Source: Dipteris shenzhenensis | Taxonomy: Eukaryota | Length of the DNA: 64,000 nt | Reading direction: 5' to 3' (one strand) | Assembly (NCBI GenBank): GCA_047967505.1 | Contig: CM106538.1 | Shown: in pieces, positions 1-27,166 of the stretch | Layout: each line of letters begins with the position of its first letter | How positions within the stretch are numbered: position 1 is the stretch's first letter | Notes under the pieces: generated by a model | Databases searched by the model: none | Seen by the model: the letters and a program-made list of their open reading frames with translations, nothing else | Told to the model about the DNA's origin: nothing | Position numbers and translations under genes: made by a program

Positions 1-1967
1 GTGTACATTGAGCATGGTGCATGTTTTTTGGAGTGTACCCAGACTGAGTTGTACACTCAGTTTGTAGAGGCGCACTTGGAGTTTAGGATTGGGCAGAGGT
101 CATTTGAGCGATGCAGGCCATGGTTTGTGCGATGCTCTCAGGAGCATGACACATGTTGTTGTCGCTACCATGTGGATTTTGGATTGATGTATGACGTATT
201 CCGTTCCCTTGATGGTCATAGGGGAGTGGTTCCTACTAGCCCTTGCGACTTCATTCATTCCATATTGTGTACACGAGATGGTGATGCTTTATTCCACTCC
301 CTTGATTGTGTGGAAGGCAGGTGTAATTTGTGTGGTGACTTTGCTAGAGTGCCACGAGTTGCACTAGATACTTGTGATGTGCAGATGGTTTGTTGGCAGC
401 AGTATGAGTACAGTACCTTGACATTAGATGGTGGTGCACAGTCGAGGAGGTTGCAGCTTGTGGGGAAGGAGACACATGTTGCATTCATCGACAGTTTTCA
501 AGGGAAGCTGTACCGCTACATACACCACTCGCACATTGCGAAATGGGAGGATCGTTAGTTCTATGCATGTTTGAGGACATTTCCTACAGGGGTGGTTGTC
601 TCAGTGGTGGACTTTGCAGAGAATTACACCTTTGCACCACAGCATGAGATCCAATCGGAGTATTATTTCTCCAAACAGGTGACATGTGATTGAGTATTGA
701 TTTTTTCCCCGCCTCATTATATTAAATTATTTCAATAGTCATATTTTTTTTCAATGCCATATTGTAGGTTGCTATATTTGTGCACATTAGCTATCGTCAT
801 GCACAGACTCATGTGGATGGCATTGATAGCACCATGGACTCACGCGTCATTGTGCGAGAGTATCACTTCTACATTAGTGATGATCGATCGCATGATGCCC
901 ATTTTGTGCAACATTGCTTCACTTTGCATGATAGTTTCTTGAGGGATCATGGTGTCACATGGCAGTGGCACTGGATCTGGTTAGATGGCTGTGGTGGTCA
1001 GTTCAAATCTGCTAGACAATTTTATTGGTTCTACAGATGGCACCGTGAGACAGGCATTCCGATCACATGGAGCTACTTCGAGACAAGGCACAGTAAGGGA
1101 GAGCATGATGGTGCAGGTGCTTACGTAAAGCATGCTTTGCATCGATACCAGTTGCATCACAGTGCCGATCGCTTCAAGGATGCACATGATGTGGTGCGGT
1201 GGTGTAGCCAGCACTTATCCACCAGTGCTATCTCCTCGTTTCAGTCACGTGACGATAGGGTGGTGAGTCAGTATTTTTGGTGCGTGGACATTGGGAGTCT
1301 TGATTGGTCTAGGCCTTTTGATTGTCGTTCAATGTCTGGCACTCTTGATTTCCATTCCATCAGGAGCATAGGTGAGTCTCACCCCGCGATCTTTTCTCGA
1401 CGGTTTGCATGTTTTTGCTCTGCATGCATTGATGATGATTGGAGAGGTTGCTCCATGATACCATGGGCCGATCCATGGGTACGGCGAGTGCTTTCTCCTT
1501 TCCAGCCTTGGGAGGAGGTACATGATGATCAGGATGCGGGATTCAGTTCCTCTAGATATTATGACTAGCTTACAGATATTTTGTGTATTGGTGATATCTT
1601 CGCGGTTATTGCTTCGGAGGGCAATGAGGAGGGTGTGGATTATTACTTGTTGTGATGCTCTATGCTGAAGAGTGTGCTAAATGAGGATACAGTGGATGGG
1701 CATGGGATGCACTTCAATGCTCATAGCATGATCATAGGTGGCCACTATTTTCAGCAGATACAGAGGCGTGGTCGCTATATTGAGTTCCAGGAGTACATGG
1801 TGGATCAGGAGGCATACATGTATTCTCATCTTGTTGTTGCGATCAAGATTACTTTGAGTCGTGTTCGCACTCGCAAGGTGACATCCACTCCACGATGGCA
1901 CCTTGCAGTGGCGGATCACGAGAGCATACTTGCAACTATTGGCATGAGAGTTGATCTTGAGGAGTAG
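1..1967 (+). pseudogene. Sola2-like DDD DNA transposase, spliced, inactivated by premature stops (5' end outside window)
   Basis: One reading frame joins ORFs 1-558, 780-1568 and 1662-1967 across stops TAG 556-558, TAG 1566-1568 and TGA 1653-1655 and a phase-0 GT-AG intron at 679-767 (SKQ|VAIFVH). Motifs: CCCRYH, CVEGRCNLCG, VVDFAENY (D at 610), WLDGCGGQFK (D at 984), ETRHSKGEHDGAGA (D at 1107), C-terminal CFCSAC. The superfamily label comes from motif recall only. Confidence 0.7.
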
Positions 1968-2299
1968 CACATTACATATCATATTTTTTGGGATCATCAG
2001 TTGATCAGATTGATTTTTATTGGGTATCACTAATTGATTACACATTTTTGTATTCGATATGTATAGGCTCACTATGTGACCGTACCATTGTAATTTTCAT
2101 GGACTCATATTTTGTATTTCACTCTGATGGTTGTATACACATTCATACACATCATTGTATTAGATTCTATTTTATACATGATGTCCGATGTCTTCTCAAT
2201 GGGATTTGTTGTGTTTGTAAAATAAAAAATTGTTTATTAGCAGTAATTTTGTCATTTGTTTTGTGCTTTAGGACATTTTAAAAACGTGACTAAGAAAAT

Positions 2300-4445
2300 T
2301 CATACACGTACTAACGAAATATGCATGTGGACTTATCTGTTGGTCCCTACTAGCACGACTACGTATGAAAAATGGTGCACGTACTAATGAAATACACATG
2401 TGGACATTTCTATTGGGGATGAAACTTTGCATGACTCTTAGGTCACCCTAGACATACATCCATGCAAGATTTAGTCTCCAATTGATTTGGTATGCACCAC
2501 GTGGAAGGTATAATGCGTGCATTTTTACAATCCCTACTAGCACGACTGCGGCAAAGCTATGGCGCACGTACTAATAAAATACACGTGTGGACTTATCTGT
2601 TGGTATGAAACTTCGCATGACTCTTAGGCCACCCTAGACATACATCCACGCGAGATTTGGTCTCAAACAGATTTGGTATGCTCCACGTGGAAGGTACAAT
2701 GTGTACATTTTTACAATCCCTACTAGCACGACTGTGGCAAAGCTATGGCGCATGTACTAATGAAATACGCATGTGGACTTAACTATTGGGGATGAAACTT
2801 CGCACGACTCTTAGGCCACCCTAGACATACATCCATGGAAGATTTGGTCTCGAACTGATTTGGTATGTGCCACGTGGAAGGTATAATGCGTACATTTTTA
2901 CAATCCCTACTAGCACAACTACGTATGAAAAATGGTGCACGTACTAACATAATATGCATGTGGACTTATCTATTGGAGATTAAACTTTGCACGGCTCTTA
3001 GGCTACCGTAGACGTACATCCACGCAAGATTTGATGTCCAACTGATTTGGTATGCACCACGTGGAAGGTATAATGCATACATTTTTACAATCCCTACTAG
3101 CACAACTACGTATGAAAAATGGCGCACGTACTAATGAAATATGCATGTGGGCTTATCTATTGGGGATGAAACTTCACATGGCTCTTAGACTACCCTAGAC
3201 GTACATCCACGCAAGATTTGGTGTCCAACCCTACTAAACCCTAAACCCTAAACCCTAAACCCTGTTGGGGATGAAACTTCACACGGCTCTTAGACTCCCT
3301 AGACGTACATCCATGCAAGATTTGGTGTCCAACTGATTTGGTATGCGCCATGTGGAAGGTATAATGCGTACATTTTTACAATCCCTACTAGCACGACTAA
3401 ACCCTAAACCCTAAACCCTGAACCCGGTTGGGGATGAAACTCCACACGGCTCTTAGGCTACCCTAGATGTAGATCCATGCAAGATTTGGTGTCCAATTGA
3501 TTTGGTATGTGCCACGAGGAAGGTATAATGCGTACATTTTTACAATCCCCAGTAGCACGACTAAACCCTAAACCCTAAACCCTAGACCCTAAACCCTGTT
3601 GGGGATGAAACTTCACATGGCTCTTAGGCTACCCTAGACATACATCCATGCAAATTTTGGTGTCCAATTGATTTGGTTTACACCACGTGGAAGGTATAAT
3701 GTGTACATTTGTATAATCCCTACTAGCACGACTAAACCCTAAACCCTAAACCCTATTGGGCATGAAACTTTGCACGGCTCTTAGGCTACCCTAGACATAC
3801 ATCCACGCAAGATTTGGTGTCCAATTGATTTGGTATGCGCCACATGGAAGGTATAATGCATACATTTTTACAATCCCTACTAGCACGACTAAACCCTAAA
3901 CCCTAAACCCTGTTGGGGATGAAACTTCACACGGCTCTCAGGCTACCCTAGACGTTCATCCACGCAATATTTGGTCTCCAACTGATTTGGTATTCACCAC
4001 GTGAAAGGTATAATGCATACATTTTTATAATCCGTACTAGCATGACTAAACCCTAAACCCTAAACCCTGTTGGGGATGAAACTTCACATGGCTCTTGGCT
4101 ACCCGAGACATACATCCATGCAAGATTTGGTCTCCAACTAATTTGGTATGCACCACATGGAAGGTCTAATGCGTACATTTTTGCAAGCACTCCCTACTTG
4201 TGATTGCATATGAAAAATGGCGCACGTACTAACCAAATATGCATGTGGACTTATCTGTTGGGGATTAAACTTTGCACGGCTCTTAGGCTACCCTAGACGT
4301 ACATCCATGCAAGATTTGGTCTCCAACTGATTTGGTATGTGCCACATGGAAGGTATAATGCATACATCCATGCAAGATTTGGTCTCCAACTGATTTCGTA
4401 TGTGCCACGTGGAAGGTATAATCCCTACTAGTGACTACGTATGAA
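2300..4445. repeat. Tandem array of ~12 units of a 187-bp monomer (157-171-bp variants carry telomeric repeats)
   Basis: The GAAACTT/TAAACTT anchor recurs at 2421, 2607, 2794, 2981, 3168, 3273, 3436, 3607, 3764, 3921, 4078 and 4266. Shared motifs include GGCTACCCTAGACATACATCC and CACGTGGAAGGTATAATG. Confidence 0.95.
3234..4068. repeat. Six short interstitial telomeric tracts (CCCTAAA)3-5 embedded in the array
   Basis: TAAACCC tracts at ~3234-3263, 3396-3425, 3561-3597, 3732-3754, 3889-3911 and 4046-4068, each followed by (T)GTTGGGGATGAAAC or a close variant. Confidence 0.95.
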
Positions 4446-4447
4446 AA

Positions 4448-4524
4448 ATGGCAAGCATTGATATATACAAAATTCAATATGATATTCAAAATGATAAAGT
4501 TCATAGCACGAGAGAGCTCTAGAA

Positions 4525-4572
<48 letters not shown>

Positions 4573-4809
4573 TATACTTGAACACCTTTTCAATGCTTAA
4601 TGTTTACAATTATGACACACGGCATTATTTTTAAAATACCTTATGTATTAGATGTGTGAATTGAGATATCTAAAATTCAAAATCATACTCTTAATTTTAA
4701 ATACGCACATGGGGATGAAACTTCGCACGGCTCTTAGGTTTAGTATAATAATTGCAAGCATTGATATATACGAAATTCAATATGATATTCAAAATGATAA
4801 AGTTCATAG

Positions 4810-4851
<42 letters not shown>

Positions 4852-4985
4852 TATACTTGAACACTTTTTCAATGCTTAATGTTTACAATTACTTCACATG
4901 GCATTCTTTTTTAAATACCTTATGTATTAGATGTGTGAATTGAGATATTTGAAATTCAAAATCATACTCCTAATTTTAAATGTTT
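4448..4985. repeat. ~300-bp direct duplication, each copy with a (GA)n microsatellite
   Basis: GCAAGCATTGATATATAC...(GA)n CCTTATACTTGAACAC...AAATCATACTC occurs at ~4451-4700 and ~4754-4985. A fragment of the 187-bp monomer (4708-4738) lies between the copies. Confidence 0.9.
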
Positions 4986-5172
4986 ATGTTAGATTTGAAC
5001 AAACTATAAATTGAGATAAACAAAGTAAGAAGAACATCATGAAAGTACGAAAATGCTCATACATCATAAAAGTAAGAACAATATCATGAAAGTACCAAAA
5101 TGAATGTGTACATCATCATCATCATCGTGCAGAAGTGCATCCCTAAAAAAGAAATGTGTGAAGCCTAAACAA

Positions 5173-7320
5173 TCATCTTGAATTAGAATCTGATAACTCC
5201 ACATATGATCCTCTAGTCATCCTCTGACGTGGCTCCTGTATGACCTGCTGCGCAACCGTCCGCTATGTGCCCTCAGGCAAAGCCGATCAGATGGGCCAGC
5301 CTCATCTCTTACATGAGATTGGCCAGCCTCATCCTAATGAAGAGGAGAGCATGCTGCATGAGCCACCACTGCCATCTCTACCTCCCTTGCCTTCTCTATG
5401 TATGTGCATCTCAGCTCCCAAAGTCATGCATCTACGAATACTCGTGCCTCAAATCTAGCGCGAGTAATCATCTCTACATGTAGAAGATGCTGGTCTCGGC
5501 CCCGCCGCCCAAGCTGCTGCTCCACCCACTGCTACAATGATGTCTGCAGCTCTGCCTCTCGCTCAATACGGCATGCCTCCTCTACTCGTGTCTTGTCACC
5601 TGGCATGAAATCACCATATGAGAAGCATCGTGGAACACACGCTGCAACCATAGATGTATCAACACCCTCCTGCATCAGCAAAGCTCTCTACGCCTCCTCC
5701 CTGTAGTGCTCTATCAAGACCACGTGGGCGAATGGATCAATGGCCTGACGATGACCAAGATACAGATCATCCATGCCTAGTCCTCTGTATGTGGCCACAT
5801 CAATGTCAGCAAAGCATACAGGGCACACTGATCATGCCACCATGTGGCGGGTCATGCAATGGAGATGTGCGATGTGGCCACACCCTAGTCCAAACCACCC
5901 TACGGTGTCAAACTCCTCGTGGCAAAGGACGCAAGTGGTGGTAGGAAGCCTGGCTATGACTACTGCATCTATGGGTGTCCTAGTCAGCACATCTATAGGA
6001 GGAGCAGGGTATAGGGCCACGTTGGGGTCGATCCTATGGCGAGATGGATCACGACTAATATGTCTCAACTGCAAAATATAGTGCTCCGCACGATGGTATG
6101 CTATGTGTGTCCGAATCTTCTGCTCCTCCAAATCTACCTCCAACAGTCGTACATGAGACTCCATATCCTGTCACAATAGATGTTCCTGCAATGCAAACAT
6201 GTCGCGTACATGGTGAGAATTAACCAAAAAACTTCAGTTCAAAACACGCTACAAAAAAATAAACTAAAATAATCAGAATAACTAACCTTGTCCCTAGACT
6301 CGGCCAACAATGCCTCCAACTCTACAATCCATGCATCTCGAGTCTCCAACTCATGCTGAGGTGGTGTAGATGTGGGAGGCAGTGTAGATGTGGGAGGCTC
6401 CATCGATGTGGGAGGTGGGGGAGGTGGAATCGAAAGTGATCTCGATAGGGCAGAGACCATGTGGTGCAAGGATGATATCACTGAATGAACATCCCCCCTA
6501 ATCCATCCTCCAACAGCTTGCAATGCTGGTGCAGGGATAGTGTGCAACTCTGGTGCCTCGCGTCGACACCGAACACCTGCAGTGTGATGCTCTTGATGCC
6601 CCATCCTACCATGTCCTGCTCCCGATCCTGGACGGGTACTAAGGTATACTACCCGATGACCAAGCACAAACTCAGTGTATAGCTACATGGCAAATGACCT
6701 GGCTATCTGACGGTTGTGAGGCAATCGACCACCATTCGTAGCGAGATATCTCAGATAAATGTGTGCTGCTATGATGGGGTGCCTACAACGTAAAATATGC
6801 AAGGGCAACCCTGATCGTGGTCGCATCGCCTCAGTGTGACCATCCCAAAACATATCCTCTAAGGCCTGCCTGTGAGGTGGTGACTCATGCTCAAACAACT
6901 GTCGAATGGCTCTCCAATCCAAGCCATGACCAGTGATCTCTGCTTGAGCCTGTGCCTGAAAGCTATCCACAACGTCCTCAATTGTGTCCAATTGACCCAG
7001 AGCCTCAAAAATTGAATCTAGACTCGCAACCAAGTGAAGGGGTGCCCTAGCAACCTGCAGTGCCCTCATCTCAGCTCTCAGAATCTCTATCTGCATACGA
7101 ATAGTGGTGCCAGAATTTGTGCGCTGCCTAGCGCATGCACAAAAAAAACACATGGAAATTAATAATCTATTTGGGTAATGAAATAATATTCTATTCAATA
7201 TGAGTTATAATCTATTTACGTAATGAAAACTATTTGTACGTACTCCTTGATGAGGTAGGATGTCGTTGGGATCATCCTATGCACCTACCGGTAGATGGGC
7301 CAAATGTGTGGCTCAATATT
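5173..7320 (-). pseudogene. Decayed spliced gene with a RING-H2 (C3H2C3) finger, probably a transposon accessory ORF
   Basis: ORFs 6683-7198, 6239-6667 and 5832-6164 join in frame through stops and GT-AG introns at 7128-7243 and 6186-6286. RING-H2 at 5814-5933 reads CVLC...CGHIAHLHC...(TGA)SVCPVC. There is a Pro-rich linker and a coiled-coil-like segment. Both ends are approximate and a frameshift near 5280 is possible. Confidence 0.65.
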
Positions 7321-7535
7321 ATGTTTATCAAACTCAATATTATTAAAAATTCTTAATTTTGATTAAAATTTTTTCAAACTCTGGTTGTTGCATTTTTAAA
7401 CTTAGATGTCTCAAATATTTTTTCCTTATATGTTTCCCTTTTTTTACTTTTTATCCAATTGATGGAATTAACTATATGGCTCAATTATTGATGGGACTTT
7501 TTAATCTAAGCACACACACACTTTTTTGTGTGTGG

Positions 7536-7537
<2 letters not shown>

Positions 7538-7629
<92 letters not shown>
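7538..7629. repeat. Compound (CT)n(CA)n microsatellite
   Basis: Directly visible. Confidence 0.95.
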
Positions 7630-8989
7630 TGTAACACACTCTTAGTAACCCTTGTATTTCTTTGCATTTATCAGTACTTTGAGGACCCTAGTAAGAAGAC
7701 TCATTATGATCTGTGTTTGTTAACTATACAGATTCTAACAAGGCTGTAGGTTTAAGAGATGGTATTGAGGAGAATCTCTATATTTTATTCCCCAAGATAA
7801 TACACGTGGTTGGGGCAAGTATTATTATACTTGATTAACTTATTTTCCAAAATAAGGAGAATTGTATTTTTTTAAATGCCTTTCTCGCTCTTTGGAAACT
7901 TTTCCACATGTGGTGTAAGGACCACATTGTCCACTTATGGCCCCTATACTAAGGACAGATAGTGGAGAGGTTTGGTTAATAAGATCTTCTTTGAATGCTT
8001 TACTGCCTTGGGTTTGCACTAGATATGGAGGAGATAGAAGGATATCTAATACATTACTTTGAACGATACACAAGCAAGGCGCATCTAGTATTTCTCGGAC
8101 TACACATTAAAAAAGAGAGCGTGTTAACACTACAGACCTTTTAAAGCGAGAACTTTGAGAAAATAATTAGGCCTTTTCAATATTATCTATTTTGGTTGGG
8201 CAATCCACCTCAACTAGTGGCCATTCCTATAGATCATCACTTGGTTCCCATGCCTGGGGAGAGAGGAGACCTTTGGACAATCATTTGCGTATGTGTTTTC
8301 CATGCGCTGATGCATTTAGAAGATCCAATTAGCCATACGCTTATGCATCTAACCACTCTAGTGTTGGGGTCTTTGCCATATGGCCAAGCAAAACAATAGA
8401 TGTTCTACATGGGTAGCACAATGTCTTAGTAGGGTGGGTTGCATGTGGGCAATCATCCTCGGATGATGCATCATTGGATAGACTTCATTCATCCCATGCT
8501 CAATTTAGGCTGGAAAGTAGAAAACGCTTTTCCAATTTCATTTGACCCCCAAGTAAATGGTGTGAATGAAGCCAAGTTACTACGCTTTGGGCCATGCTAT
8601 ACTAAGGATAGAAATAGAAGATACTTTTTTGTCATTATGTGAGCGTCAAGTGAGAGGATGTAGGTGGGCGCCAGGTGGGAAGGAACGAGTTATTTTGCTC
8701 AAGACATGAAAGAAAAAATCATTTTGCTAATATAAGGGAGAAACTCACATACCACATGACATTGAATATTGCTTGCTCTTTTATCCCAAGGATGATGAGG
8801 ACATGATTAGCTATGCTGGGATACATTTTTAGGATAATGCCCATGTGGTGTGGTGTTTTAGGGATAATGCCCATGTGTTTTATACAGCCTACTTACTCTA
8901 CCTAAATTATGAAACAACTCTTAACCAACTATATAATCTATGATATTCCACATAAAGATTGATAAACGCACACCGCTACCTAGTACTCC

Positions 8990-10400
8990 TATTTTCTTTT
9001 TTTTTAAAAGATGATTTTGAAGACTAAAATTTAAACATTTTTTTATTAAAATAAAAATAGCACCAATTTGAAAAATAACATAAAACCTACTTTAATCTCT
9101 CTTTTTTTAAATAGATGAATTTAGAAAACAAAACATATACATTTTCACATTTTAAATAAAAAATTACGTAATTAAAAAAAATTATTTTAAAAAACTTTAA
9201 AATGCATTTGAAATTTTGAAATATTTTATAATTAGATTACATATTCCTATAAACTAAAATAATATAAAAGCTACTTTAAATTCTTATTTTCTTTTTTTTA
9301 ATAGATGATTTCTAAAAACAAAATTTAAACGTTATATTCAATTCAAAACTTCAGTAATTTATAAACTTCAATTATAATTTTTTTTAAATAGATGATTTTA
9401 AAAAATAAATTATATACTTTTTGACATTTAAATAAAACTTCACTAACTAAAATAACTTACATAACATAAAAGCTACCTTAAACTCTTATTTTCTTTTTTT
9501 TTAAAGATCATTTTTAAAAATAAAATTTAAATGTTTTTTTATTTAATTAAAAATAGCACTAATTTAAAAAATAACTTTAATCTCTTTTTTAAAAAGATGA
9601 TTTTAAAAAACAAAATATATACATTTTCACATTTTAAATAAAAAATTACGTAATTTCAAATATAATTTAAAAAAACTTTAAAATGCATTTCAATTTTAGA
9701 AATATTTTATAATTATTCCTATAAACTAAAATTTAAACGTTATATTTAATTCAAAACTTCACTAATTTAAAAAATAACATGCAAACTACTTTAATCCCTC
9801 TTTTTTTTAATAGATGATTTTAAAAAACAAAATATATACTTTCTTGACATTTAAATAAAAACTTCACAATCTTAAATAACATAAAAGCTACCTTAAAATC
9901 TTATTTTTACATTTTAAAGAAAAAATTACGTAATTAAAAAAAATTATTTAAAAAATTTTTAAATTGCATTTGAAATTTTAAAATATTTTATAATTACATT
10001 ACATTTTCCTATAAACTAAAATAATATAAAAGCTACTTTAAACTCTTATTTTCTTTTTTTTAATAGATGATTTCTAAAAACAAAATTTAAACGTTTTTTT
10101 ATTTAAATAAAAATAGCACTAATTTAAAAGATAACTTTAATCTCTCTTTTTTAAAAGATGATTTTAAAAAATAAAATATTCACATTTTCAATAAAAATAT
10201 CGTAATTCTTAAAAAAAACTTTAAAATGCATTTGAAATTTAGAAATATTTGATAATTATTCCTCAAATTTTTTTTGCGGTCGACGTTGAGCCTACGGCAC
10301 CCATGGACATGGGATTAGAATTAGGCTAGAAAATAGACAAACAACTCAACGATTCCGACGGTGAGTCCTATAAACTAAAATTTAAATAAATTTTAGCAAA
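8990..10400. repeat. Extremely AT-rich region built from shuffled duplicated blocks
   Basis: Recurrent motifs AGATGATTTT(T)AAAAAACAAAAT, AAAATTACGTAATT, TGCATTTGAAATTTT and CCTATAAACTAAAA, each in 3-7 copies. Confidence 0.8.
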
Positions 10401-10427
10401 AAAAAATGCTACATAAAAAAAACCTTA

Positions 10428-10908
10428 CCTGGACTCTCCTGCTCCGTCCATCTCCGTCGTCGTTCGTCGGTCACTCTCCGTCGCTACTGCAATTCCGTTG
10501 ACCTCCCGCAAATCCGAAATCGGTCGATGAGAAGGAGCTCGATCGAGGTATGAAGAATGAGGGGGGTCACTCTCTTTATATAAGAAAATTTAGGGTTTCC
10601 CTACCTCGATCGAGGTATTTCACATGCAACATACATATCGCTCCATCATACCTCGATCGAGGTATATACATGCCACGATACCTCGATCGAGGTATCATAC
10701 ATGCCACATGTACATCGTTCCATCATACCTCCATCATACCTCGATCGAGGTATTTGACATGCTCCGTTGTTGTCCGTCGGTCACTCTCCGTCGCTGCTGC
10801 AATTCCGTCGACCTCCCACAAATCCGAAATCGGTCGATGAGGAGGAGCTCGATCGAGGTATGAAGAATGAGGGGGGTCACTCTTTTTATATAAGAAAATT
10901 TAGGGTTT
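10428..10908 (-). promoter_or_regulatory. Duplicated (310-bp period) minus-strand promoter-like unit: telo-box, TATA, short first exon and strong splice donor
   Basis: On the minus strand, AAACCCTAA (10590-10598, repeated at ~10900) precedes TATATAAA (10575-10582, repeated at ~10885). A CAG|GTAAGG donor at 10428 leads into the T-rich region and points toward the RING gene. Function is inferred. Confidence 0.45.
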
Positions 10909-11456
10909 CCCTACCTCGATCGACGTATTTCACATGCAACATACATATCGCTCCATCATACCTCGATCGAGGTATCGTACATGCCACATGTACATCGCTC
11001 CATCATACCTCATACACATCGGCACATCTACGTTGATCGAGGTATTTGACATGCCCCATACACATCGGCACATCTACGTTGATCGAGGTACTGACCTGCC
11101 ACGATACCTCGATCGAGGTAAGTCAGCAGTAGACGGATGCCACATATCTCGATTGACGTATTTGACATGCGGCCAAGTCATCGATCCCGCATACCTCGAT
11201 CGAGGTATGTGAACTGCCTTGTCGGATGGCACATACCTTGATCTAGGTGTAGCTGGACATGCCACGATACCTCAATTGAGGTATAGCTGGATTACCAGGC
11301 TACCTCAAACGAGGTATAGGTGGCATGCCAAAAGACCTCGATCGAGGTATAGGCTCAGTTCGGTGAAAAAAGTTCAGGACCTCGATCGAGGTATGGGCTT
11401 GGCTCGATTGTCCTCATGTGTGATTTTCATTGGAGATAATACCTCGATCGAGGTAT
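10540..11456. repeat. Cluster of ~19 copies of the palindrome (A)TACCTCGATCGAGGTA(T)
   Basis: Near-perfect copies at ~10602, 10648, 10678, 10736, 10958, 11104, 11191, 11334, 11378 and 11438, plus degenerate copies such as ATACCTCAATTGAGGTAT at ~11267. Confidence 0.95.
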
Positions 11457-11549
11457 GGCAGACCGAAGCAAAAGCTTTGTATTTTCACTCAAGTGGGTGT
11501 CACACTCACCCGAAAGTGGTCCGGAAGTGGACACCCTTAGCTTGCTACC

Positions 11550-12570
11550 GGGGACGAGCATTTTCTGAGCGAAATCTTCCGAGCATCCGAGCGAAGGAAA
11601 AAAAAAGCTTCCAACTATGCATAAATACGGCAAAAATCGATAAGAAGAAAACATAGTTTCACTTACAAATATGCAAAGTATTATAGCAATGTCTATTTTA
11701 TACAAAAATCTTTCGGTGAATCTGTAGGAATGGTGAGAGCATAATGGGATGGCTTTTGAAGAAACCCACATGTAGAGTAGACTTCTCTATGAAAATTCCC
11801 TTATGATCCTTCTTACAACTTTTACTTAATAGGGGGTGACATTGAAAACCCTCTCTCAACCTATCTTCATGAAAGAGTTTCTTCAAAGAAAACTCATTAA
11901 AGCAAGCCATCCAGGTAGTTTCGCCAGTGAAACCCCTTTGAAGCAAGTCTCCCAAGGTAGTTTCGCTGGCGAAACTACCTTGGACAGCACTTTTAAAAGT
12001 GACATAACTTTTTTATCCAATGTCCAAATATAGTCATTCAACCACTCAAATTGATCGGAACACCCCATTTGAGCACATCTATGGAGTTATATTTTGGAAA
12101 ATCTTTCATATATAGTATTAAATATTACATGTATTTTATGAGAGTGATATATAAGCCCAAGTTAATACTTATTTATAGTAATTTAAACTTCTTTAGAAAC
12201 ATGTCCATAAATATGCTATAAAAACACTAAAAAGATATTGCCATATGATATAAATGTGTTAATAAGTAATTATATATGCATAGTATTATTACATTGAGAG
12301 TGATTATGAGGAATGTTTCTTAAAGGAATCAACACTTTTTTAAGGTAATAACAGGGGTACAAAGGGATGTCTCTAAATAAGAAAATTATGTTGTGTAAAA
12401 ATGAATGAGTGACTAGTCTGTATATTTTTATGATAAAGGGATCTAGTTCTAGTGAAAATAAAAGTGTAAAAACCATGTTTCCTAAAGAAAAACATTTTTA
12501 AAAATCTCTTGAAAAACACGCTCGGATAAACCTGCTCATAGGTTTTTGCTCATAAAATTGACGCGTCCGC
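11550..12570. mobile_element. Non-autonomous TIR element (Mutator-like MITE), ~1 kb
   Basis: Direct repeat GCTTGCTACC at 11540-11549 and 12569-12578 (TSD 8-10 bp depending on the boundary chosen). Imperfect TIRs GGGGACGAGCATTTTCTGAGC / GCTCATAAAATTGACGCGTCCGC. No coding capacity. Confidence 0.65.
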
Positions 12571-17660: not shown

Positions 17661-18432
17661 CGAATTAGAAAAAAAGAGAGCTCATTTTGGGGCCTTTTAG
17701 AAGAGAGAGAAAATAGGCTCTCAACCAATCAGGAGTGGGCCAACGTAACGTTGAAAATTCAACAAAAGAAGATGAAAATAAGAAAAAGAAATAGTACTAT
17801 ATGTTCGTAGAAGCATGTCACATTAATGAGGTGATCTGATTTGAATCTTTAAAAAATTTATATTATGTGCAGAATTTGGTGATTTTGACATCGCAGACGC
17901 GTCCGGAACGGCCCAAAACCCAAGAACGGCACTGGAAACGCTGGAATCGGACATCCGGAGGCCCGGAAACGGCCAAAAAAGGCCAAAAAACGCGATTTGC
18001 AGCAAAATGCGATTTGGCACTTTTGAAATTCGCAATTTGCAACAAAATGCGATTTGGCACTTTTGAAATTTCAAAAGTGCCAAATCGCATTTTGCTGCAA
18101 ATCGCGTTTTTCGGCCTTTTTTGGCCGTTTCCGGGCCTCCGGATGTCCGATTCCAGCGTTTCCAGTGCCGTTCTTGGGGTTTTGGGCCGTGCTTGGGGTT
18201 TTGGGCCGTTCCGGACGCGTCAGCGATGTCAGAATCACCAAATTCTGCACAGAAAAGTGTTGCTCTTATATGAACATTGAATGTAAAGCATGTGAAAGAA
18301 TATATTTATTCCTTTTCACACTGACATTTCTCATGCAAGTATCCATATTTTCTTGCTTTTGTAGAGAGAGAAAAGAGAAAATAGTGAATTTCTTACAGGG
18401 CCCCAAAATGAGTTCCCTTTTTTCCTAATTCG
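17661..18432. mobile_element. Foldback element copy 1 (~30-bp TIRs plus ~390-bp internal palindrome), in the Copia-B leader
   Basis: Termini ATTAGAAAAAAAGAGAGCTCATTTTGGGGCC ... GGCCCCAAAATGAGTTCCCTTTTTTCCTAAT. The internal inverted repeat spans 17866-18251 with a loop-less centre GAAA|TTTC at 18068/18069. A near-identical second copy is at 43091-43898. Confidence 0.9.
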
Positions 18433-18773: not shown

Positions 18774-19674
18774 ATGACATTACAGAACACTGCAAAATAT
18801 TCTGTCACTGCCAAAAACACAGCTTTTGCCTCACACGGGCAGATCTGCAAAACTGACGAAAGTGGTATTTCACCACACAGTCACTTCCTAGTGATGATTT
18901 TGCATCAACAGGCAATAAGCATGATTCTGCAACTCCTAATATCTCTGCACACAGGCATACGATGCAATTTCTGCGGCAACTTTTCACCGACTAGCTGTGC
19001 AGTGGTCGCACAGCCAAAACAGGGCCTTTTTCTGAGTGCCTGCAAAGAACTTCCGCCTTCAAAACGGGCCCCGAAATGACCTCGAATCAGAAAAATAAAG
19101 TTACCAAGGGCTTCGCCTACTCCCGAGCATATAATGCCCTCTCGTCACACTGCGAAGGCGTCTCAATCTGAGACAGTGCACTCTTGCACTTCCGGTTGTG
19201 CTACCTGCAGAGATTTGCTCCCAAACTCGAAAAAGGAAAGCAACACTTGTCCTCTTACCAGGACACTGCGAACTTGGTTTGCTTTCTTGAGCTCCTTACC
19301 ACGAACAAGGCTCTGATACCATGTGAAGATAGTGGGAGAGAGGGAAGGAGTCTCACTTGTAGCTTTCTCACAAGCACAATGGGGGAATACACACAAAGGT
19401 GGAGGCTGAAAACAGTTTTCCTTTTCTTAGTTGTGAAAGCCAAAAGAACTCTAGTACAAAGAAAATAGAAGAACCCTATATGTGGGTCTCAAACCAAACT
19501 CAACTAACTAAGGTGGCTTAGTAACTGAGCCACAAACTAGAGTAGATAAGGATAGCTATCATCCAGCTATTATTCGTGGGTGGTGTACCAACCGCATCTC
19601 CAGCTAACAAGTCGGTGACATAAATACACAACGGTCACCCTGGCATATCACGAGTGGAGCTCGATATCTCAACA
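18774..19674 (-). mobile_element. Copia family A 5' fragment: LTR 19322-19674, PBS 19310-19321 and leader ending about at the gag start
   Basis: 353-bp TG...CA LTR matching 25412-25764, 53441-53793 and 58612-58964. The leader matches 24867-25399. Confidence 0.92.
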
Positions 19675-20480
19675 CTGGTGATGATACTGCACATCCTATT
19701 GTGCAGATTGGTAAAATTCCTTTGTCTATGCAGGATGGGAAAAAGAAATACCTGTCTAATGTATTTCATGTCCCGAATATCACCAAGAACCTGGTTTCTA
19801 TTGGTCAAATGGTTGAGTAGGGCTTGCAGGTCAGATTTAATCCTCATGGATGCTTTGTTGAGGATATGAAAAATAACGGTTGCTTGATAGCAAAAGGAAA
19901 GAAGAAGGACAGGATGTTTACATTGGATGCGGACATGCCTGAATTGAGTGCAGCAATGTTTGCACATGGGACCGGTGTAGTTGTAGATATTGATATCTAG
20001 CATAAACGCATTGGTCATGTTAATGTACGACTCAAATCAATGCAGGCCTAAAATATTGTTGCATGATTGCCTAAATTCAAGGTTGCAGAAATGCATAAGA
20101 TATGTGAAGCCTATCAATTTGGAAAACAGGCAAGGAAACCATTTCCTAGACATGTTCAAGAGAGTAAGAAGCCATTGGAATTAATCCACTCTGATGTGTT
20201 GACTACTAAAGCTGCATCTATTGGAGGCTGTCATTATTTTGTCACTTTTATTGATGACTATAGCAGAAAAGTTTGGGTGTATTTTACGAAAAAGAAAAGT
20301 GAAGTGTTTGGACATTTCAAAGCTTTTAAAGCTATGGTTGAAAAAGAAACAGGCCTGCAAATAAAATGCCTAAGGTCAGATGGAGTGGGAGAGTACCTCT
20401 CAAATGAGTTTGCAAGGTTCTTGTAGGAGCATGGCATAAAGCAACAATATTCATGCAATCATACCCCACAGCAAAATGGA
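19675..20480 (+). mobile_element. Inverted internal Copia-A fragment (post-protease to integrase core)
   Basis: Reverse-complement match to ~22950-23760. Encodes TGDDTAHPIVQIGK...ELIHSDV...FIDDYSRK...CLRSDG with stops. Confidence 0.92.
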
Positions 20481-23400
20481 CAAGTCGGTGACATAAATGC
20501 ACAACAGTCACCCTGGCATATGGAGCTCGATATCTCAACACTCCCCCTCGAGCTCAATCCCAAATCTTGCACACCAAGCAGGTCTCTGAACTTGCGCAGC
20601 TTCTCTGCGCCCAATGCTTTCGTGAATATGTCAGCTACCTGATCCTCTGTGCTGACATAAACTAGATCAATAAGACCTAGTAAAACCTTCTCCTGCACAT
20701 AGTGATAATGAACCTCAATGTGCTTTGTTCTAGCATGAAAGATTGGGTTCTTTGCCAAGTGTATACTGCTCATGTTGTCACAATAAATGACAACCGGCCC
20801 ATCTGTAGACTGATGCATATCATAGAGTAGCTTATGCAACCAAGCTACCTCACATGCAGCCATTACTGCACCCCTGTACTCAGCCTCTGTGCTCGACAAG
20901 GCAACTGTAGGCTGTTTCTTGCTGCTCCAAGTGACTGCAGCACTCCCAAAAGAGAACACATATCCACTGGTAGATGTCTATCTGAAATGCTACCAGCCCA
21001 ATCAGCATCAGTGTATCCATGCAACTGTATCTGAAACCCAGCCTCATAAAATAGTCCATACTGCAATGTGGACTTCATATACCTGAGTATGCGTCTAGTC
21101 GCATCCAAATGCGGTTTCCTTGGAGCCTGCATAAACTAACTTACCAACCCAACAGCATAGCTCAAATCTAGCCTGGTAATAGTCATGTAAATCAAACTTC
21201 CTACTATGCGTCTGTACGTAGTAGGGTCTTCCAGAAGCTCACCTGCATCTGTGCTCAGCTTCACATTCTGCTCCAAAGGAACTGAAATAGGCTTACAGCC
21301 TGTCATCCCATATTTGGACAGCGTGTCCAATCCATACTGCCTCTGCAAGAGCTGTATCATCCCACTTGGTGATCTAATCACCTCAATGCCCAAGAAATAA
21401 CGCAGCTTTCCCAAGTCCTCCATCTCAAACTTCTGCCTCAATAGCATTTTCACATGAAGGATATCTTCATCACTATCACCTGTGATGATCAAATCATCAA
21501 CATAAATGACCAGCAGCATAATCCCTTTCTCTGTTTTTCTCACATAGAGTGAGAAATCTGCCTTGGATATCTGAAAGCCAATAGTGACAAGATACTGTCC
21601 TATCTTGTCAGACCATGCTCTAGGTGCTTGCTTCAAGCCATACAAGGCTTTCTTCAACCTGCAAACAAACTCAGGATGAATAGCATGAACATAACCTGCT
21701 GGCTGCTCCATAAAGACCTCTTCTTGCAAATCACCATGCAAGAAGGCATTCTTTACATCCATCTGATGTAAAGACCATCCCTTTGATGCAGCCATAGCAA
21801 TGGCTGCTCTTACGGTTGCCATCCTTGCAACCGGGCTGAAAGTTTCTTCATAATCAATGCCATATGTCTGTGCATACCCCTTGACAACTAATCTTGCCTT
21901 GTATCTATTCACAGAACCATCTGCATTATGCTTGATCTTATAAACCCACTTACAGCCAATTGCATTCTTGCCTTTAGGCAAAGGCACCAATTCCCACGTA
22001 GCATTAGCATCCAAGGCATCCATTTCTTCATCCATGGCTTTCTCCCATTTTTCATTTCCCATGGCTTCCTCAAAAGAAGTGGGCTCTGGTTCCTGTATCA
22101 CTTTGACCATATAGGCATAGTGAATGGCTGTAAATCCATCATATTTCAGCCTATCCACAGGATACCTAACCCTGGTAGACCTGCGCAAAATAGGCTCACT
22201 TCCAGGTGCTCTCAAAACATCCCTGGTCTTCCTTACTCCAGGTGTAACAACAGAAGGAATACCCAACTCATCATCAATGCTCTGTTCTGAGCCACTGGAT
22301 TCACCATCCACACAAGAGTGACCTGCATTCAGATCAAACATGGGCTGATCTACCTTCTCTTTTCCTTTTCGTAATACCTGCGTACCACTCTCCGCATTGC
22401 TTTGAGGGGATTCTCCTGATCTCAATCTGCCTGTCCATGGCGAAGTATGTGAACCACTGGTAGAGGACACTCCAGGTCCACTGATATTTTGTGATTGCTG
22501 CTGTGCATTCTGTGCAGCATTACCATTTTGTGCATCTACATCAATCATCATATTTACTAGTTTATACCAGCTGCTCATCTCATCAAAAACAACATCTCTG
22601 CTCACTGTGAACTTACGTGTAGAAGGGTTATAGCATCTATGCCCTTTCTGCTCCAGAGAATAACCAATAAAGACGCACTTCTCAGCTTTTGGATCCAACT
22701 TGGACCTCAACTCATCTGGCACATGGACATAGGCAATGCAACCAAAAATCTTCAAATGAGAAATATCTGGTTTCCTACTAGTATACATCTCCTCTGGCGT
22801 CATGCCATGTATTGCTGCAGTGGGAGTGTTGTTCATTATATAGACTGTTGTAGCAACTGCTTCAGCCCAATAATAATCTGGTAGATCTTTTTCATTTAGC
22901 ATAGCCCGAGATACCTCTCCAATATGCCTCTTTTTTCTTTCTGCAATTCCATTTTGCTGTGGGGTATGACTGCATGAATATTGCTGCTTTATACCATGCT
23001 CCTGCAAGAACCTTGCAAACTCATTTGAGAGGTACTCTCCCCCTCCATCTGACCTTAGGCATTTTATTTGCACAGGCCTGTTTCTTTTTCAACCATAGCT
23101 TTGAAAGCTTTGAAGTGCCCAAACACTTCACTTTTCTTTTTCATAAAATACACCCACAGTTTTCTGCTGAAGTCATCAATAAATGTGACAAAATAGTGAC
23201 AGCCTCCAATAGATGCAGCTTTTGTAGTCCACACATCAGAGTGGATTAATTCCAATGGTTTTTTACTCTCTTGAACATGCCTAGGAAAAGGTTTCCTTGC
23301 CTGTTTCCCAAATTGACAGGCTTCACAAACCTTGTGCATTTCTACAACCTTGAATTTAGGCAATCCTGCAACAATATTTTGGGCTTGCATTGATTTAAGT

Positions 23401-25764
23401 CGCTGTATATTAACATGACCAATGCGTTTGTGCCAGATATCAATATCTGCAAATACACTGGTCCCATGTGCAAACATTGCTGCACTCAATTCAGGCATGT
23501 CCACATCCAACGTAAACATCCTGCCCTTCTTCTTTCCTTTTGCTATCAAGCGACCATTATTTTTCATATCCTCAACAAAGCATCCATGAGGATTAAATCT
23601 AACCTGCAAGCCCTGCTCAACCATTTGACCAACAGAAACTAGGCTCTTGGTGATGTTTGGGACATGAAATACATCGGACAGGTATTTCTTTTTCCCATCC
23701 TGCATAGACAAAGGAATTTTACCAATCTGCACAATAGGATGTGCAGTATCATCACCAGTCTCCATAAATCCTGGCTTTTCCATTTTCCGTGCATCCTACA
23801 TCCATTTTGCATGACCTATCATGTGGTTTGATGCACCTGAGTCAACATACCACACATCATTTCATTCTTTTGCACTTGTCACAGAGTTGGTCATATGTTG
23901 CACCATAAATAGATGCTCATTTCTGTCATCACCTTGTCTACTAGAAGATGCATATTTGCCTTGCTGCAATTTTCCATTCATAATGTCATTCTGCTTTTTG
24001 TAGCAGTCCTTAGCCATATGACCCATTTTGCCACAATAGTAGCATTCAACATTGCTGTTTGCATTTTGGCTTCTCTGCCATCCACCACGGCCTCTTTGGC
24101 TCCCCCTGCCTCTAGAGTTACCACGTCCTCGTGCATAGGACTGGTTTTCTTGCGTTTGCTGCATATTCTGATTTCTACCACGGCCTGCAGATCGGCCTCC
24201 TCTACCTCTGCCTCTACCTCTTCCAGCATTTGAGTAGAAGACAGTTTCTTTTGAAGTTCCTGCTGAAGAAGATGCACCCCCATTTCTCTGCTCTTCAGAA
24301 ATTAGAAGAGCAATCAGCTCCTCAAAATCAGGAAATTTTTCACGGACGGCAATGGATGTCCGGAACTGTGCATAATCCTTTCCTAGACCATTCAAGGTCA
24401 CATAAACCAAATCATCATCATCCACTGGCGACCCAATGGAAGCAAGTGCATCTGCAATTTTCTTCACTTTCATGTGGTAGTCATTTATGCTCAAATTTTC
24501 TCTCTGCACATTGTGCAACTCCTGTTTGAGTTGCATTTTCCTGGCTTGCGTATTTGTGCTATACATTTTTGGCAAAGTATCCCATGCCTCCTTTGGCGTA
24601 TTTGCATCCTGAATATGCACAATCATGGAGTCCGAAATACTGATAGACAACAAGTACATAACTTTCCTGGCTCTCTCATGCCATCCTTTGAATGCCTGCA
24701 TTTCCTATTGACTGGGAGCATTAGGAAGAACAGGTTCTTCTTCATTTCCTGTAATGAATTCCCAATAGCCTTTTCCCATCAAGAAATTCGTCATTCTAAA
24801 CTTCCATGCCTGGAAGTTGTTCGTGTCAAGCTTTTCAGTGACAATCTGTGAAAGAGAATCAGATGCCATTACAGAACACTGCAAAATATTGTCACTGTAA
24901 AAAAAACAACTCTTGCCACACACAGGCAGATCTGCAAAACTGACGAAAGTGGTATTTCACCACATAGTCACTTCCTAGTGACGATTTTGCATCAACAGGC
25001 AACAGGCATGAATTTGTAACTCCCAATATCTCTGCACACAGGCATACGATGCAATTTCTGCGGCACCTTTCCACCGACTAGCCGCGTAGTGGTCGCACAG
25101 CCAAAAACAGGGCCTTTTTCTGAGTGCCTGCGAAGAACTTCCGCCATCAAAACGGGCCCCGAAACGGCCTCAAATCAGAAAAATAAAGTCACTTAGGGCT
25201 TTGCCCTACCCCGCAGCATATACTGCGCTCTCGCCACACCGCGAAGGGCGTCTCAATCTGAAACAGTGCACTCCTGCACTTCTGGCTGTGCTACCTGCAG
25301 AGATTTGCTCCCAAACTCGAAATAGGAAAGCAACACTGGTCCTCTTACCAGGACACCACGAACTTGGCTTGCTTTCTTGAGCTCCTTACCACGAACAAGG
25401 CTCTGATACCATGTGAAGATTGTGGGAGAGAGGGAAGGAGTCTCACTTGCGGCTTTCTCACATAAACAATTGGGGGAATACACACAAAGGTGGAGGCTGA
25501 AAACAGTTTTCCTCTTCTTAGTTGTGAAAGCCAAAAGAACTCAAGTACAAAGAAATAGAAGAACCCTATATGTGGGTCTCAAACCAAACTCAACTAACTA
25601 AGGTGGCATACTAACTGAGCCACGAACTAGTGTAGATAAAGATAGCTGTCATCTAGCTATTATTCGTGGGCGGTGTACCAACCGCATCTCCAGCTAACAA
25701 GTCGGTGACATAAATGCACAACAGTCACCCTAGCATATCAAGAGTGGAGCTCGATATCTCAACA
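20481..25764 (-). mobile_element. Near-complete Ty1/Copia family A element (3' LTR truncated to 20481-20540)
   Basis: 5' LTR 25412-25764, PBS 25400-25411, PPT (CTCGAGGGGGAG) at 20541-20552, and gag-PR-INT-RT-RNaseH order. Confidence 0.95.
20490..24869 (-). pseudogene. Copia gag-pol polyprotein with stops and frameshifts
   Basis: MASDSLSQIVTEKLD (ATG 24869), CYYCGKMGHMAKDC, WYVDSGASNH, IHSDVW, RYKARLVVKG, QMDVKNAFLHG, IYVDDL, YTDADWAG, VALSSTEAEY, TKHIEVHYH. Confidence 0.93.
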
Positions 25765-25769
25765 AAAGT

Positions 25770-26054
25770 TGGTGAGGGCGGGCGGAGGGGGAAGGGGGTG
25801 AGGACATAGGCACGGGCGTGGGCAGAGGGGGAAGGGGATGAGGGCGCAGGGCAGGCGGGCATGGGTGGAGGGGGAAGGGGGTGTGGGTGCAGTGCGGGGC
25901 AGGGCGGGCGAGGAGGGGCAAGGCAGGTGCGGGCGGAGGGGGAAGGGGGTGAGGGCCACTACGGGCACTGTGCCTTAGCAGTAGCAGCAAGGGCTTAAGG
26001 CCCTTGCTTAATGGGTTAGGTTTTAGGAGCGTGGAGTGGCCGGTGAGGGGGGTT

Positions 26055-26090
<36 letters not shown>

Positions 26091-26430
26091 GGTAAAGGGG
26101 GGGAAATGGGGGGTGGTGAAGGGGGTGAGGGAGTGGTGGAGGGGGTAGTGGAAAGGAATGGGGGGGAAAAGGGTGGGGGTGGAGATGGGTGAGGGGGGGT
26201 TTGGAAATGGAGGGGGGGGGGGGAAGGGTGGTGGTGAGGGGGGAAGATGGAGATGGAGGAGGTGGGGGGGGGAACAGGGTGGTTGTGGAGGGGGAGGTGG
26301 AGGAGGGGGGGTTGGTGGTGGAGATGGAGGGGGAATGGAGGGAGGCAGGGAGGGGGAGGGGCGGGGGGGGAAGCGGAGGGGGAAGTGGAGGGGGTGGTGG
26401 TGGAGGGGAGAATGGTGAAGGGGGAGGGGG
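25770..26430 (+). repeat. G-rich polypurine low-complexity block (dense G3+ runs, (GA)n)
   Basis: Dozens of G runs of 3-12 nt on the + strand. The Pro- or Gly-rich ORFs here are compositional artefacts. Confidence 0.9.
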
Positions 26431-27166
26431 AAAAAAGAAAAAAAGAAAAACCTTGATGGACGAAAAACTTTGACAGAAATCCAAAGGGGGGAAGAGATGG
26501 TCACCTCTTTCTCGATGTAATGGGATTGTTGAGGACCAATGGATGGTGGGTGGATGGCTAGGTTATCACCTGTGCGAGATGGGCTCGAAGTAACTTACCA
26601 TGTGAAGATGGGAGTAGGGTGGTGGTCGATGGAGAGAGAGGACTGTCTTGCGTAGGGCTCGGAATGGGAAAGAGGATGGAGGCAAGATGTGAAAGAAAAA
26701 GTATGAGAGGGATGGGTGCTCTTTTATAGGGAAGGAGGGGGGGCTGTGGATTTAGTCAAACACATGTGCACCTTTGAATTTATCCATGTTTAACTAGGGA
26801 GGTGGTTTTAATTTTTCTTTTGGGTTATGGCACTTAGAACCTTTAATCATCGATTGCCCATAACTTTTGGTGGTTGTGTCAGAATGTGCTTCTGTAAAAA
26901 GGAGAAATGTTCAAAAATTCAAGCTCTACACTTTGACAACCATCACATGGTCTGATTTATTCCTTAGGGTGCTATTTTTCTAGAAAACATGCATTTTCTT
27001 AAACTCGTAATGAAGAGTTTCAGTTAGGAAATTTTTAAATTTATTTTTACTTGAGCTGGAAATTTTTAGCTCTCCTAGCTCTTGAGTGATATGTTCGTGA
27101 AAGTTTGAAGTAGTTTGTTTTTTACACATACCTATGTATGTTTACTCTTTACTTGAGACGCTAGTC

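Follow-up and report, generated by a model that had tools for sequence, protein, structure and literature searches.

A decayed eukaryotic DNA transposon that probably carried a RING-H2 gene beside its transposase gene

Positions 1-11540 of a 64,000-nucleotide stretch of contig CM106538.1 from Dipteris shenzhenensis (the whole stretch is referred to here as the window) contain a transposase gene and, on the opposite strand, a gene for a RING-H2 protein. The region is probably what decay has left of a cut-and-paste DNA transposon with a eukaryotic DDE/D transposase, in which the RING-H2 gene would be a lineage-specific second gene of the transposon and not a host gene. The RING gene is probably a property of the transposon rather than of the host, because an intact relative, the metagenome locus L055, has an equivalent gene pair; it is taken as a lineage-specific second gene because it is almost without other relatives. 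Both genes are dead in the window copy. An earlier note on this DNA had proposed a Sola2-like, RING-carrying transposon forming a single element of more than 11.5 kb. The linkage of a RING-H2 gene to this transposase family is borne out by L055, whereas the single element is a tentative reading, since its left end would lie outside the window, the two genes are in tandem in L055 and the parts of the region do not match in CpG content. No paper was found that describes a DNA transposon of such a kind with a separate RING-H2 gene, although supplements or Repbase entries might hold one.

The transposase gene and its family

The transposase gene lies at the left end of the window and consists of the following parts.

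1-678, + strand: exon 1 of the transposase pseudogene, running in from before position 1; Cys-rich region and first catalytic-motif block, DFAENY; collinear tblastn match to L055
679-767, + strand: transposase intron, GT..AG, 89 nt, phase 0
768-1967, + strand: transposase exon 2, with the blocks DGCGGQFKS and SKGEHDGAG, a C-x-C..C..C zinc motif and the C-terminal domain; true stop at 1965-1967

The spliced, transposase-like gene on the + strand ending at 1967 is thus as the earlier note had described it, with two exons and an intron backed by L055. The intron at 679-767 is considered confirmed because the L055 protein aligns unbroken across the junction. An extra intron near 1570-1655, suggested by the list of open reading frames (ORFs), was rejected, as this interval contains two in-frame stops instead. 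The coding sequence is interrupted by three internal stops (TAG 556-558, TAG 1566-1568 and TGA 1653-1655) and by no frameshifts. Comparison with L055 indicates that about 250 transposase codons and the 5' end of the gene are located upstream of the window.

The transposase family is large, eukaryotic and without a Pfam model. HMMER searches of 1.84 billion representatives returned 1578 relatives at E<=1e-3, 291 at 1e-10 and six at 1e-30, the best being 44% identical. The three transposase ORF pieces of the window had no Pfam match at E<=1, and 26 of 27 long relatives likewise lack any Pfam domain, the remaining one having an OTU domain. Searches of the Atlas pointed to clusters in which 16-23% of members have DUF7869; a literature search found no paper mentioning DUF7869. 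The family alignment contains a Cys-rich N-terminal region, D(F/Y)(S/A)ENY, SDGC..Q(F/Y)KS, HGKGE.DG.G, C-x-C..C..C and a C-terminal domain, with (S/L)DGC..Q.KS as a variant of the second block across the family. The window transposase fits every one of these conserved blocks.

The AlphaFold model of the 266-residue core has a predicted local distance difference test score (pLDDT) of 90.9 and a predicted template modelling score of 0.86. In an exhaustive structural scan with VIA-align, retroviral integrases ranked top (Z 7.8-6.9), followed by IstA, Mos1, Ty3 integrase, TnsB, Metnase and Hermes. The best integrase match had a Z of 7.8 with a root-mean-square deviation of 2.9 over 125 aa, and Mos1 and Hermes scored 6.4 and 5.4, respectively. 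Integrases and DDE transposases make up all 22 best matches (Z 7.8-5.8) and 24 of the 26 at Z>=5; the other two belong to prokaryotic Argonaute systems. Z values below 8 are only moderate. Nevertheless, because the list of matches is so uniform, the protein is, on the predicted structure, a transposase of DDE/D type with an RNase H-like fold. Its catalytic core includes the acidic triad, a feature common to all DDE superfamilies. Foldseek returned no match for the core in the PDB at E<=1e-3, and the family profile matched none of the PDB sequences.

The RING-H2 gene

The second gene is encoded on the - strand.

7128-10428, - strand: possible first intron of 3.3 kb, its splice inferred from matching phase only
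6287-7127, - strand: large exon, with acceptor AG at 7129-7128, ATG at 7096-7094 and a conserved middle block
6286-6186, - strand: intron, GT..AG, 101 nt, phase 0; the reading frame runs on across it
5688-6185, - strand: last exon, with a coiled-coil-like stretch and then the RING-H2 domain at 5933-5814

The earlier note had placed a spliced RING-H2 gene on the - strand at about 5173-7320. The gene, its intron and its RING domain were recovered, but there is no support for coding from 5688 to 5173 or for a start at 7320. TAG 5690-5688, the first stop past the RING, may be the true end of the gene, and the frame from there down to about 5173, which contains more stops, is taken to be non-coding. 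The gene itself is interrupted by TAG 6685-6683, by TGA 6173-6171 and by a TGA within the RING between ligands 6 and 7; the first of these corresponds to a Gln in the homologue P0002. All eight metal ligands of a C3H2C3 RING-H2 domain are present in the window, with the pattern C-x2-C-x(9-39)-C-x(1-3)-H-x(2-3)-H-x2-C-x(4-48)-C-x2-C.

Among 5.8 billion protein clusters, the large exon has a single match, P0002 (44% identical over 121 aa), and the last exon also has a single match, P0154 (62% identical over 104 aa). The relatives of the RING gene number five in total, P0002, P0154 and P0155-P0157, all of them unnamed. P0154 appears to be another decayed copy, because several of the RING cysteines are tyrosines there. 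The gene is unlike a conserved host gene, given that its matches are so few and unnamed. Among the outcomes that would tell against its proposal, the earlier note had named RING copies present as single-copy syntenic host genes; no host-gene-like set of RING orthologues was found in these clusters.

The possible first intron also contains a (TG)n/(AG)n run at 7538-7629 and an AT-rich block at 8975-10260 (14.6% GC) composed of tandem repeats of about 200 bp and interspersed repeats. ORFs at 7.8-8.9 kb and at 11.2-12.8 kb match nothing in Pfam.

Linkage of the two genes in L055

A metagenome scan with four transposase sequences yielded 168 relatives, of which 80 loci were kept, and a metagenome scan with the RING alignment gave 131 pattern matches, none of which was confirmed. 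The 80 loci were probed with RING proteins, with the RING-H2 pattern and with two small hidden Markov models. L055, a 4917-bp metagenome contig, carries both genes.

632-3483 of L055: transposase gene of 2.85 kb, spliced and apparently intact
3658-4917 of L055 (contig end), same strand as the transposase: ORF2, open, starting 175 bp past the transposase stop

The transposases of L055 and the window are 38-44% identical over their full length. The RING-H2 domain of L055 is intact and is 48% identical to that of the window over 50 residues, including the flanking D-I-D..Y-R (tblastn 1e-12). A collinear middle block is shared by L055 ORF2, the large exon of the window gene and P0002, with pairwise E values of 0.007 and 0.001. 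ORF2 has three more unnamed relatives at 63-96% identity, all open. An Atlas search with its middle part gave no usable match, and the AlphaFold model built from four sequences had a pLDDT of 33.9, too low to use.

A tree was built from the window and 59 of the 80 loci, each of which spans 180 or more of the 266 core positions. A 37-row clade with a Shimodaira-Hasegawa approximate likelihood ratio test support of 97 unites the window with the L055 group (4 rows), and L055 is sister to a 33-row clade containing the window. A member of this transposase family is the immediate neighbour of the RING gene in both of the two cases with visible surroundings, across deep divergence, so that two independent, diverged copies, the window and L055, show the linkage of second gene and transposase. 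Because both visible neighbourhoods contain the same transposase family, there is good evidence that the transposon carries the RING gene.

The two genes have decayed alike, as the earlier note had observed. Each contains in-frame stops as its only lesions, and CpG loss is equal, with CpG observed/expected ratios of 0.45-0.60 and TpG/CpA ratios of 1.5-1.7 in both (CpG ratio of the whole window, 0.49). The in-frame stops are of the C-to-T type that is typical of long methylation.

Second genes in other members of the family

Other members of the transposase family have different partners. NIF/CTD-phosphatase-like genes (PF03031) lie tail to tail with the transposase in L029 (2767-3972, - strand, E 8e-15) and in L063 (5322-6104, - strand, E 4e-6). 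The two NIF proteins are 29-33% identical, a divergence about as large as that of their transposases. A small palindrome cluster is found at 2606-2708 of L029, between the NIF gene and the transposase. In another clade, L049 (3686-5302, - strand) and L052 (7029-8732, - strand) contain a convergent ORF of 540-570 residues that has no significant Pfam match and is 64-84% identical between them. Finally, an OTU-like cysteine protease domain of the deubiquitinase type is fused to the transposase in 4 of 88 aligned members; in P0130 it occupies residues 920-1071 of 1203. The fused OTU domain is a second link between this family and the ubiquitin system. The NIF, convergent-ORF and OTU partners suggest that second functions have been acquired repeatedly in this family. 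Nor is a convergent layout exceptional there, since the second genes of L029 and L063 and of L049 and L052 are all convergent.

Arrays, palindromes and a promoter-like block

The + strand transposase gene ending at 1967 and the - strand RING gene lie tail to tail and flank a 187-bp array; both statements of the earlier note hold, and the array was located at 2344-3229. The repeats between the genes are as follows.

2344-3229: 187-bp tandem array
3241-4186: array of a 157-bp variant, in which part of the 187-bp unit is replaced by (CTAAACC)3-5
up to 4422: partial array units
4535-4702 and 4814-4981: 168-bp direct duplication (94%), with a (GA)n run in each copy

The (CTAAACC)3-5 runs are of the plant telomere motif and occur within every 157-bp satellite unit (3234-4075). 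In L028, tandem arrays begin about 200 bp past the transposase, a parallel with the arrays of the window, with which they have no sequence in common.

The far end of the region, upstream of the RING gene, contains a second group of features.

10429-10600, - strand: promoter-like unit or possible first exon, with AAACCCTAA at 10597-10589, TATATAAA at 10582-10575 and ATG at 10451-10449
10429, - strand: possible end of the first exon (phase 2), with a strong donor GT at 10428-10427
10449-10676 and 10758-10987: 230-bp duplication (95%), which includes AAACCCTAA and TATATAAA and overlaps the palindrome cluster
10535-11455: palindrome cluster, 19 copies of the 16-bp TACCTCGATCGAGGTA; candidate subterminal transposase-binding sites
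11491-11536, - strand: short hairpin, GGGTGTC..GACACCC, with the candidate terminus AGTGGACACCC at 11526-11536

All that the earlier note had listed here, namely the TATA/telo-box unit with AAACCCTAA, the donor at 10428, the palindrome cluster and the GACACCC sequence, is present. At up to three mismatches, TACCTCGATCGAGGTA occurs 19 times, always within 10535-11455; 0.12 occurrences are expected, and none of 100 shuffles reached 19. The acceptor AG at 7129-7128 opens the large RING exon at the third codon base and the donor exon ends in phase 2. Because these phases fit, joining 10429 to 7127 would preserve the reading frame and place a few extra residues before the internal ATG.

Palindromes also occur near the transposases of relatives. 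Dense copies of one palindromic motif are found on both sides of the transposase in L029, and in 13 of the 80 loci a palindromic 10-mer is present three or more times, often in the range 0.5-1.3 kb upstream of the transposase, with a motif that differs by lineage. L029 supports the interpretation of palindrome clusters as marks of element ends. In L045, 17 copies of the palindrome GCTAATTAGC are located at 913-1741, within the span matched by the transposase, as if intronic or between two partial copies.

One element, two fragments or a chance neighbour

Several findings weigh against a transposon with a RING-H2 second gene, and each is considered here with the alternative that it bears on. 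The first concern the RING gene and how often it is found. Although the eight ligands are present, the RING fragment of the window scores below the Pfam gathering cut-off for zf-RING_2 (PF13639), the check proposed in the earlier note: it reaches 18.5 bits (E 0.0025) against a cut-off of 27.3, its domain being split by a stop. L055 ORF2, from a contig that ends right after the RING, also remains below this cut-off (24 bits, E 4.6e-5). Homology beyond the RING is weak; hhalign aligned the middle block over 94 columns at E 8e-4, with a probability of just 24%. Among the 80 loci, the RING second gene was detected in L055 alone. There is no RING in 22 other loci with at least 1.5 kb downstream of the transposase. 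In the 33-row clade of the window, L001, L008, L010, L017, L019, L028 and L050 are without a RING in the 1.5-4.4 kb downstream. Since these 22 loci show none, the second gene is either sporadic or beyond the reach of the flanks; in the window the RING domain lies 3.9 kb from the transposase stop.

One alternative is that the RING-H2 gene is a host pseudogene lying beside a transposon fragment by chance, or a gene that was captured here on a single occasion. Plants have RING-H2 genes in great number, the pair is seen in just one of 80 relatives, and its orientation differs between the window and L055. However, this explanation is very unlikely. The gene lacks named or widespread orthologues, with only five unnamed proteins, one of them decayed, from 5.8 billion clusters. 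The same transposase family adjoins it in both visible cases, at about 40% transposase identity, and the decay of the RING gene equals that of the transposase gene. The RING gene is therefore still best regarded as probably transposon-borne.

The layout of the region raises a second set of objections. The genes are in tandem in L055 but convergent in the window. Upstream of the RING gene there is no remnant of a transposase, and comparison of the 3' flank of the transposase with the flanks of the RING gene, or with 10.26-11.8 kb, gave matches at chance level only. That positions 1-11540 form one convergent two-gene element is accordingly a tentative reading. It is rather unlikely that they are instead two fragments placed tail to tail. 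The + strand piece would then be the 3' portion of an autonomous copy whose own ORF2 is gone. The - strand piece would be a transposase-less derivative, with 5' palindromes, promoter and first exon, then an internal deletion, then the RING gene, and satellite-like arrays would lie between the two. The RING gene would still be borne by the element. Such an arrangement would agree with the order in L055, where the transposase precedes ORF2 on one strand, and with the palindrome clusters 5' of the transposase in L006/L007, L018/L019/L021 and L029, the position expected for the - strand copy. The gap of 3.3 kb between the possible first exon and the RING exon is close to the length of a transposase gene, which measures 2.85 kb in L055, and the splice across it is in frame. 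However, no trace of a transposase was found at 7200-10400, even at E<1, and there is no inverted repeat of two 3' ends in 1968-5200. Convergent second genes exist in other clades of the family, and in relatives from the window clade no right end appears in the 3-4 kb next to the transposase.

The third set of objections concerns the palindrome and promoter-like block at about 10260-11540. Its CpG observed/expected ratio is 1.57 (10261-10534) and 1.17 (10535-11455), compared with 0.45-0.60 in the genes, and 31 of 38 CpGs in the motifs are intact, as counted from the table of palindromes. The block may therefore be younger, unmethylated, recently amplified or foreign, since CpGs are kept there and lost in the genes. 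The TACCTCGATCGAGGTA motif occurs in none of the 80 relatives. The in-frame splice has a one in three probability of arising by chance. Palindrome clusters were tried as a hallmark of the family and rejected as such, because 13 of 80 loci compared with 1 of 10 control chunks of the window represents no enrichment; since the loci are no richer than the controls, only L029 is used as a clear case. In addition, no right-end counterpart of the left palindrome region was found in L017, L019 or L008.

The block could be foreign to the old element, either the end of a younger transposon or a CpG-island promoter of the host. The high CpG content, the 95% identity of the 230-bp duplication and the lack of the motif in relatives all favor this explanation. 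Nevertheless, it is rather unlikely. Relatives show palindrome clusters beside the transposase, each with its own motif, and the block lies at the position expected for the promoter of the RING gene, with a fitting splice phase. Moreover, CpGs would likewise be retained in binding sites that are under selection or that were amplified recently.

Comparison with known systems

PIF/Harbinger elements encode a transposase and a Myb-like ORF1, and the order and orientation of the two genes vary between lineages. The window resembles them in that the transposase gene of a DNA transposon is accompanied by a further, unrelated protein gene, which the element requires or carries. However, the window transposase has no DDE_Tnp_4 or Plant_tran match, and the second protein is a Myb/SANT DNA-binding protein in PIF/Harbinger but a RING-H2 protein with a coiled coil here. 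En/Spm (CACTA) elements produce TnpA and TnpD from one strand by alternative splicing. Shared with the window are many short, repeated subterminal binding motifs that overlap the promoter, a first exon that is short and followed by a long intron, and two proteins per element. Unlike En/Spm, the window has no Transposase_21/24 Pfam match at E<=1 and no apparent CACTA terminus in 11491-11536, and its genes are convergent.

VANC of VANDAL21 (Hiun), one of the Mutator-like elements of Arabidopsis, is an anti-silencing protein that binds DNA in a sequence-specific manner and causes loss of methylation; it is not a RING protein. By analogy, VANC may serve as a model for the counter-silencing role proposed here, as an accessory protein encoded by a DNA transposon that is rich in short tandem motifs. 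For L055 ORF2, the best matches among solved structures are RING-H2 E3 ubiquitin ligases (synoviolin/HRD1, Arkadia/RNF165, RNF24, RNF126 and RNF38), which match the RING only (E 0.003-0.02) and are alike in C3H2C3 pattern and spacing. They differ in that the rest of L055 ORF2, about 360 aa, matches nothing known, and in that the gene here is encoded beside a transposase.

The Sola superfamily was reportedly described by Bao and colleagues in 2009, with the groups Sola1, Sola2 and Sola3, a 4-bp target-site duplication and group-specific termini. A passage in PMC4455052 gives Sola as a Repbase superfamily, and one in PMC5751038 cites Majorek et al. 2014 for the RNase H-like group E.12, to which Sola2 is assigned. 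Compared by description only, Sola and the family of the window are alike as eukaryotic cut-and-paste transposons that have a DDD/DDE core of RNase H-like type, lack a Pfam model and are distributed widely but in patches. Sola2, the group named in the earlier note, is a candidate assignment for the window transposase. No paper was found on a Sola element with a RING-H2, NIF or OTU partner.

Proposed functions of the two proteins

In the proposed mechanism, the transposase would bind the short palindromes clustered near the element end, probably as a dimer, and would cut out the element and paste it elsewhere. The second protein, with its conserved middle block, coiled coil and C-terminal RING-H2 domain, would probably dimerize through the coiled coil. 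Its RING could recruit a host ubiquitin-conjugating enzyme (E2), which would make the protein a ubiquitin ligase with either a host repressor or the transposition complex as its target. The earlier note had proposed that the second ORF modulates host silencing or proteostasis, which would be a role of this kind. That the RING protein removes a host repressor of the element is put forward tentatively. That it acts on, or together with, the transposase at the element ends seems somewhat doubtful.

A broader proposal would be that, in plant-like genomes, one lineage of a poorly described, Sola-like DDE family has a RING-H2 ubiquitin ligase of its own that serves in counter-defence or as a transposition cofactor, that sister clades recruited a convergent NIF/CTD-type phosphatase or a fused OTU deubiquitinase, and that the whole family thus tampers with host protein modification. 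Taken as a whole, this proposal is quite unlikely.

The accessory genes of DNA transposons, such as those for the Harbinger Myb-like protein, En/Spm TnpA and VANDAL VANC, reveal how mobile elements handle host control. Some viruses turn E3 ligases of their own against host defences. A transposon-borne RING-H2 ligase, if true, would be a new kind of accessory gene and would tie transposon biology to the ubiquitin system. As the window copy is dead, the intact gene pair of L055 provides concrete proteins for testing. In addition, the NIF-phosphatase partners and fused OTU domains indicate that the family deserves a systematic survey.

Setting of the element in the window

The window has the look of transposon-rich, plant-type DNA, because it contains Arabidopsis-type telomere motifs in the satellite, Copia and Gypsy polyprotein ORFs and a GC content of about 41%. 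A search of the whole window against Rfam returned nothing, and, its own internal repeats aside, nothing from 1-12000 is found a second time in the window.

Other elements in the window lie outside the region described above. A Copia-type retrotransposon is located at 18774-25764 on the - strand, with an integrase and reverse transcriptase ORF at 21139-23088 and a gag ORF at 23865-24704. It is bounded by direct repeats of about 900 bp (18774-19674 and 24863-25764) that are 92% identical, and related fragments are found at 53.4-58.9 kb. A pair of repeats at 17664-18429 and 43092-43897 (90-95% identity) contains an internal inverted repeat, with 17908-18190 folding back at 92%, and has the look of a foldback element or a miniature inverted-repeat transposable element. 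Finally, positions 26000-28000 are strongly G-skewed (GC skew 0.61), contain long open frames rich in Pro, Ser and Gly on both strands, and are probably a low-complexity repeat.

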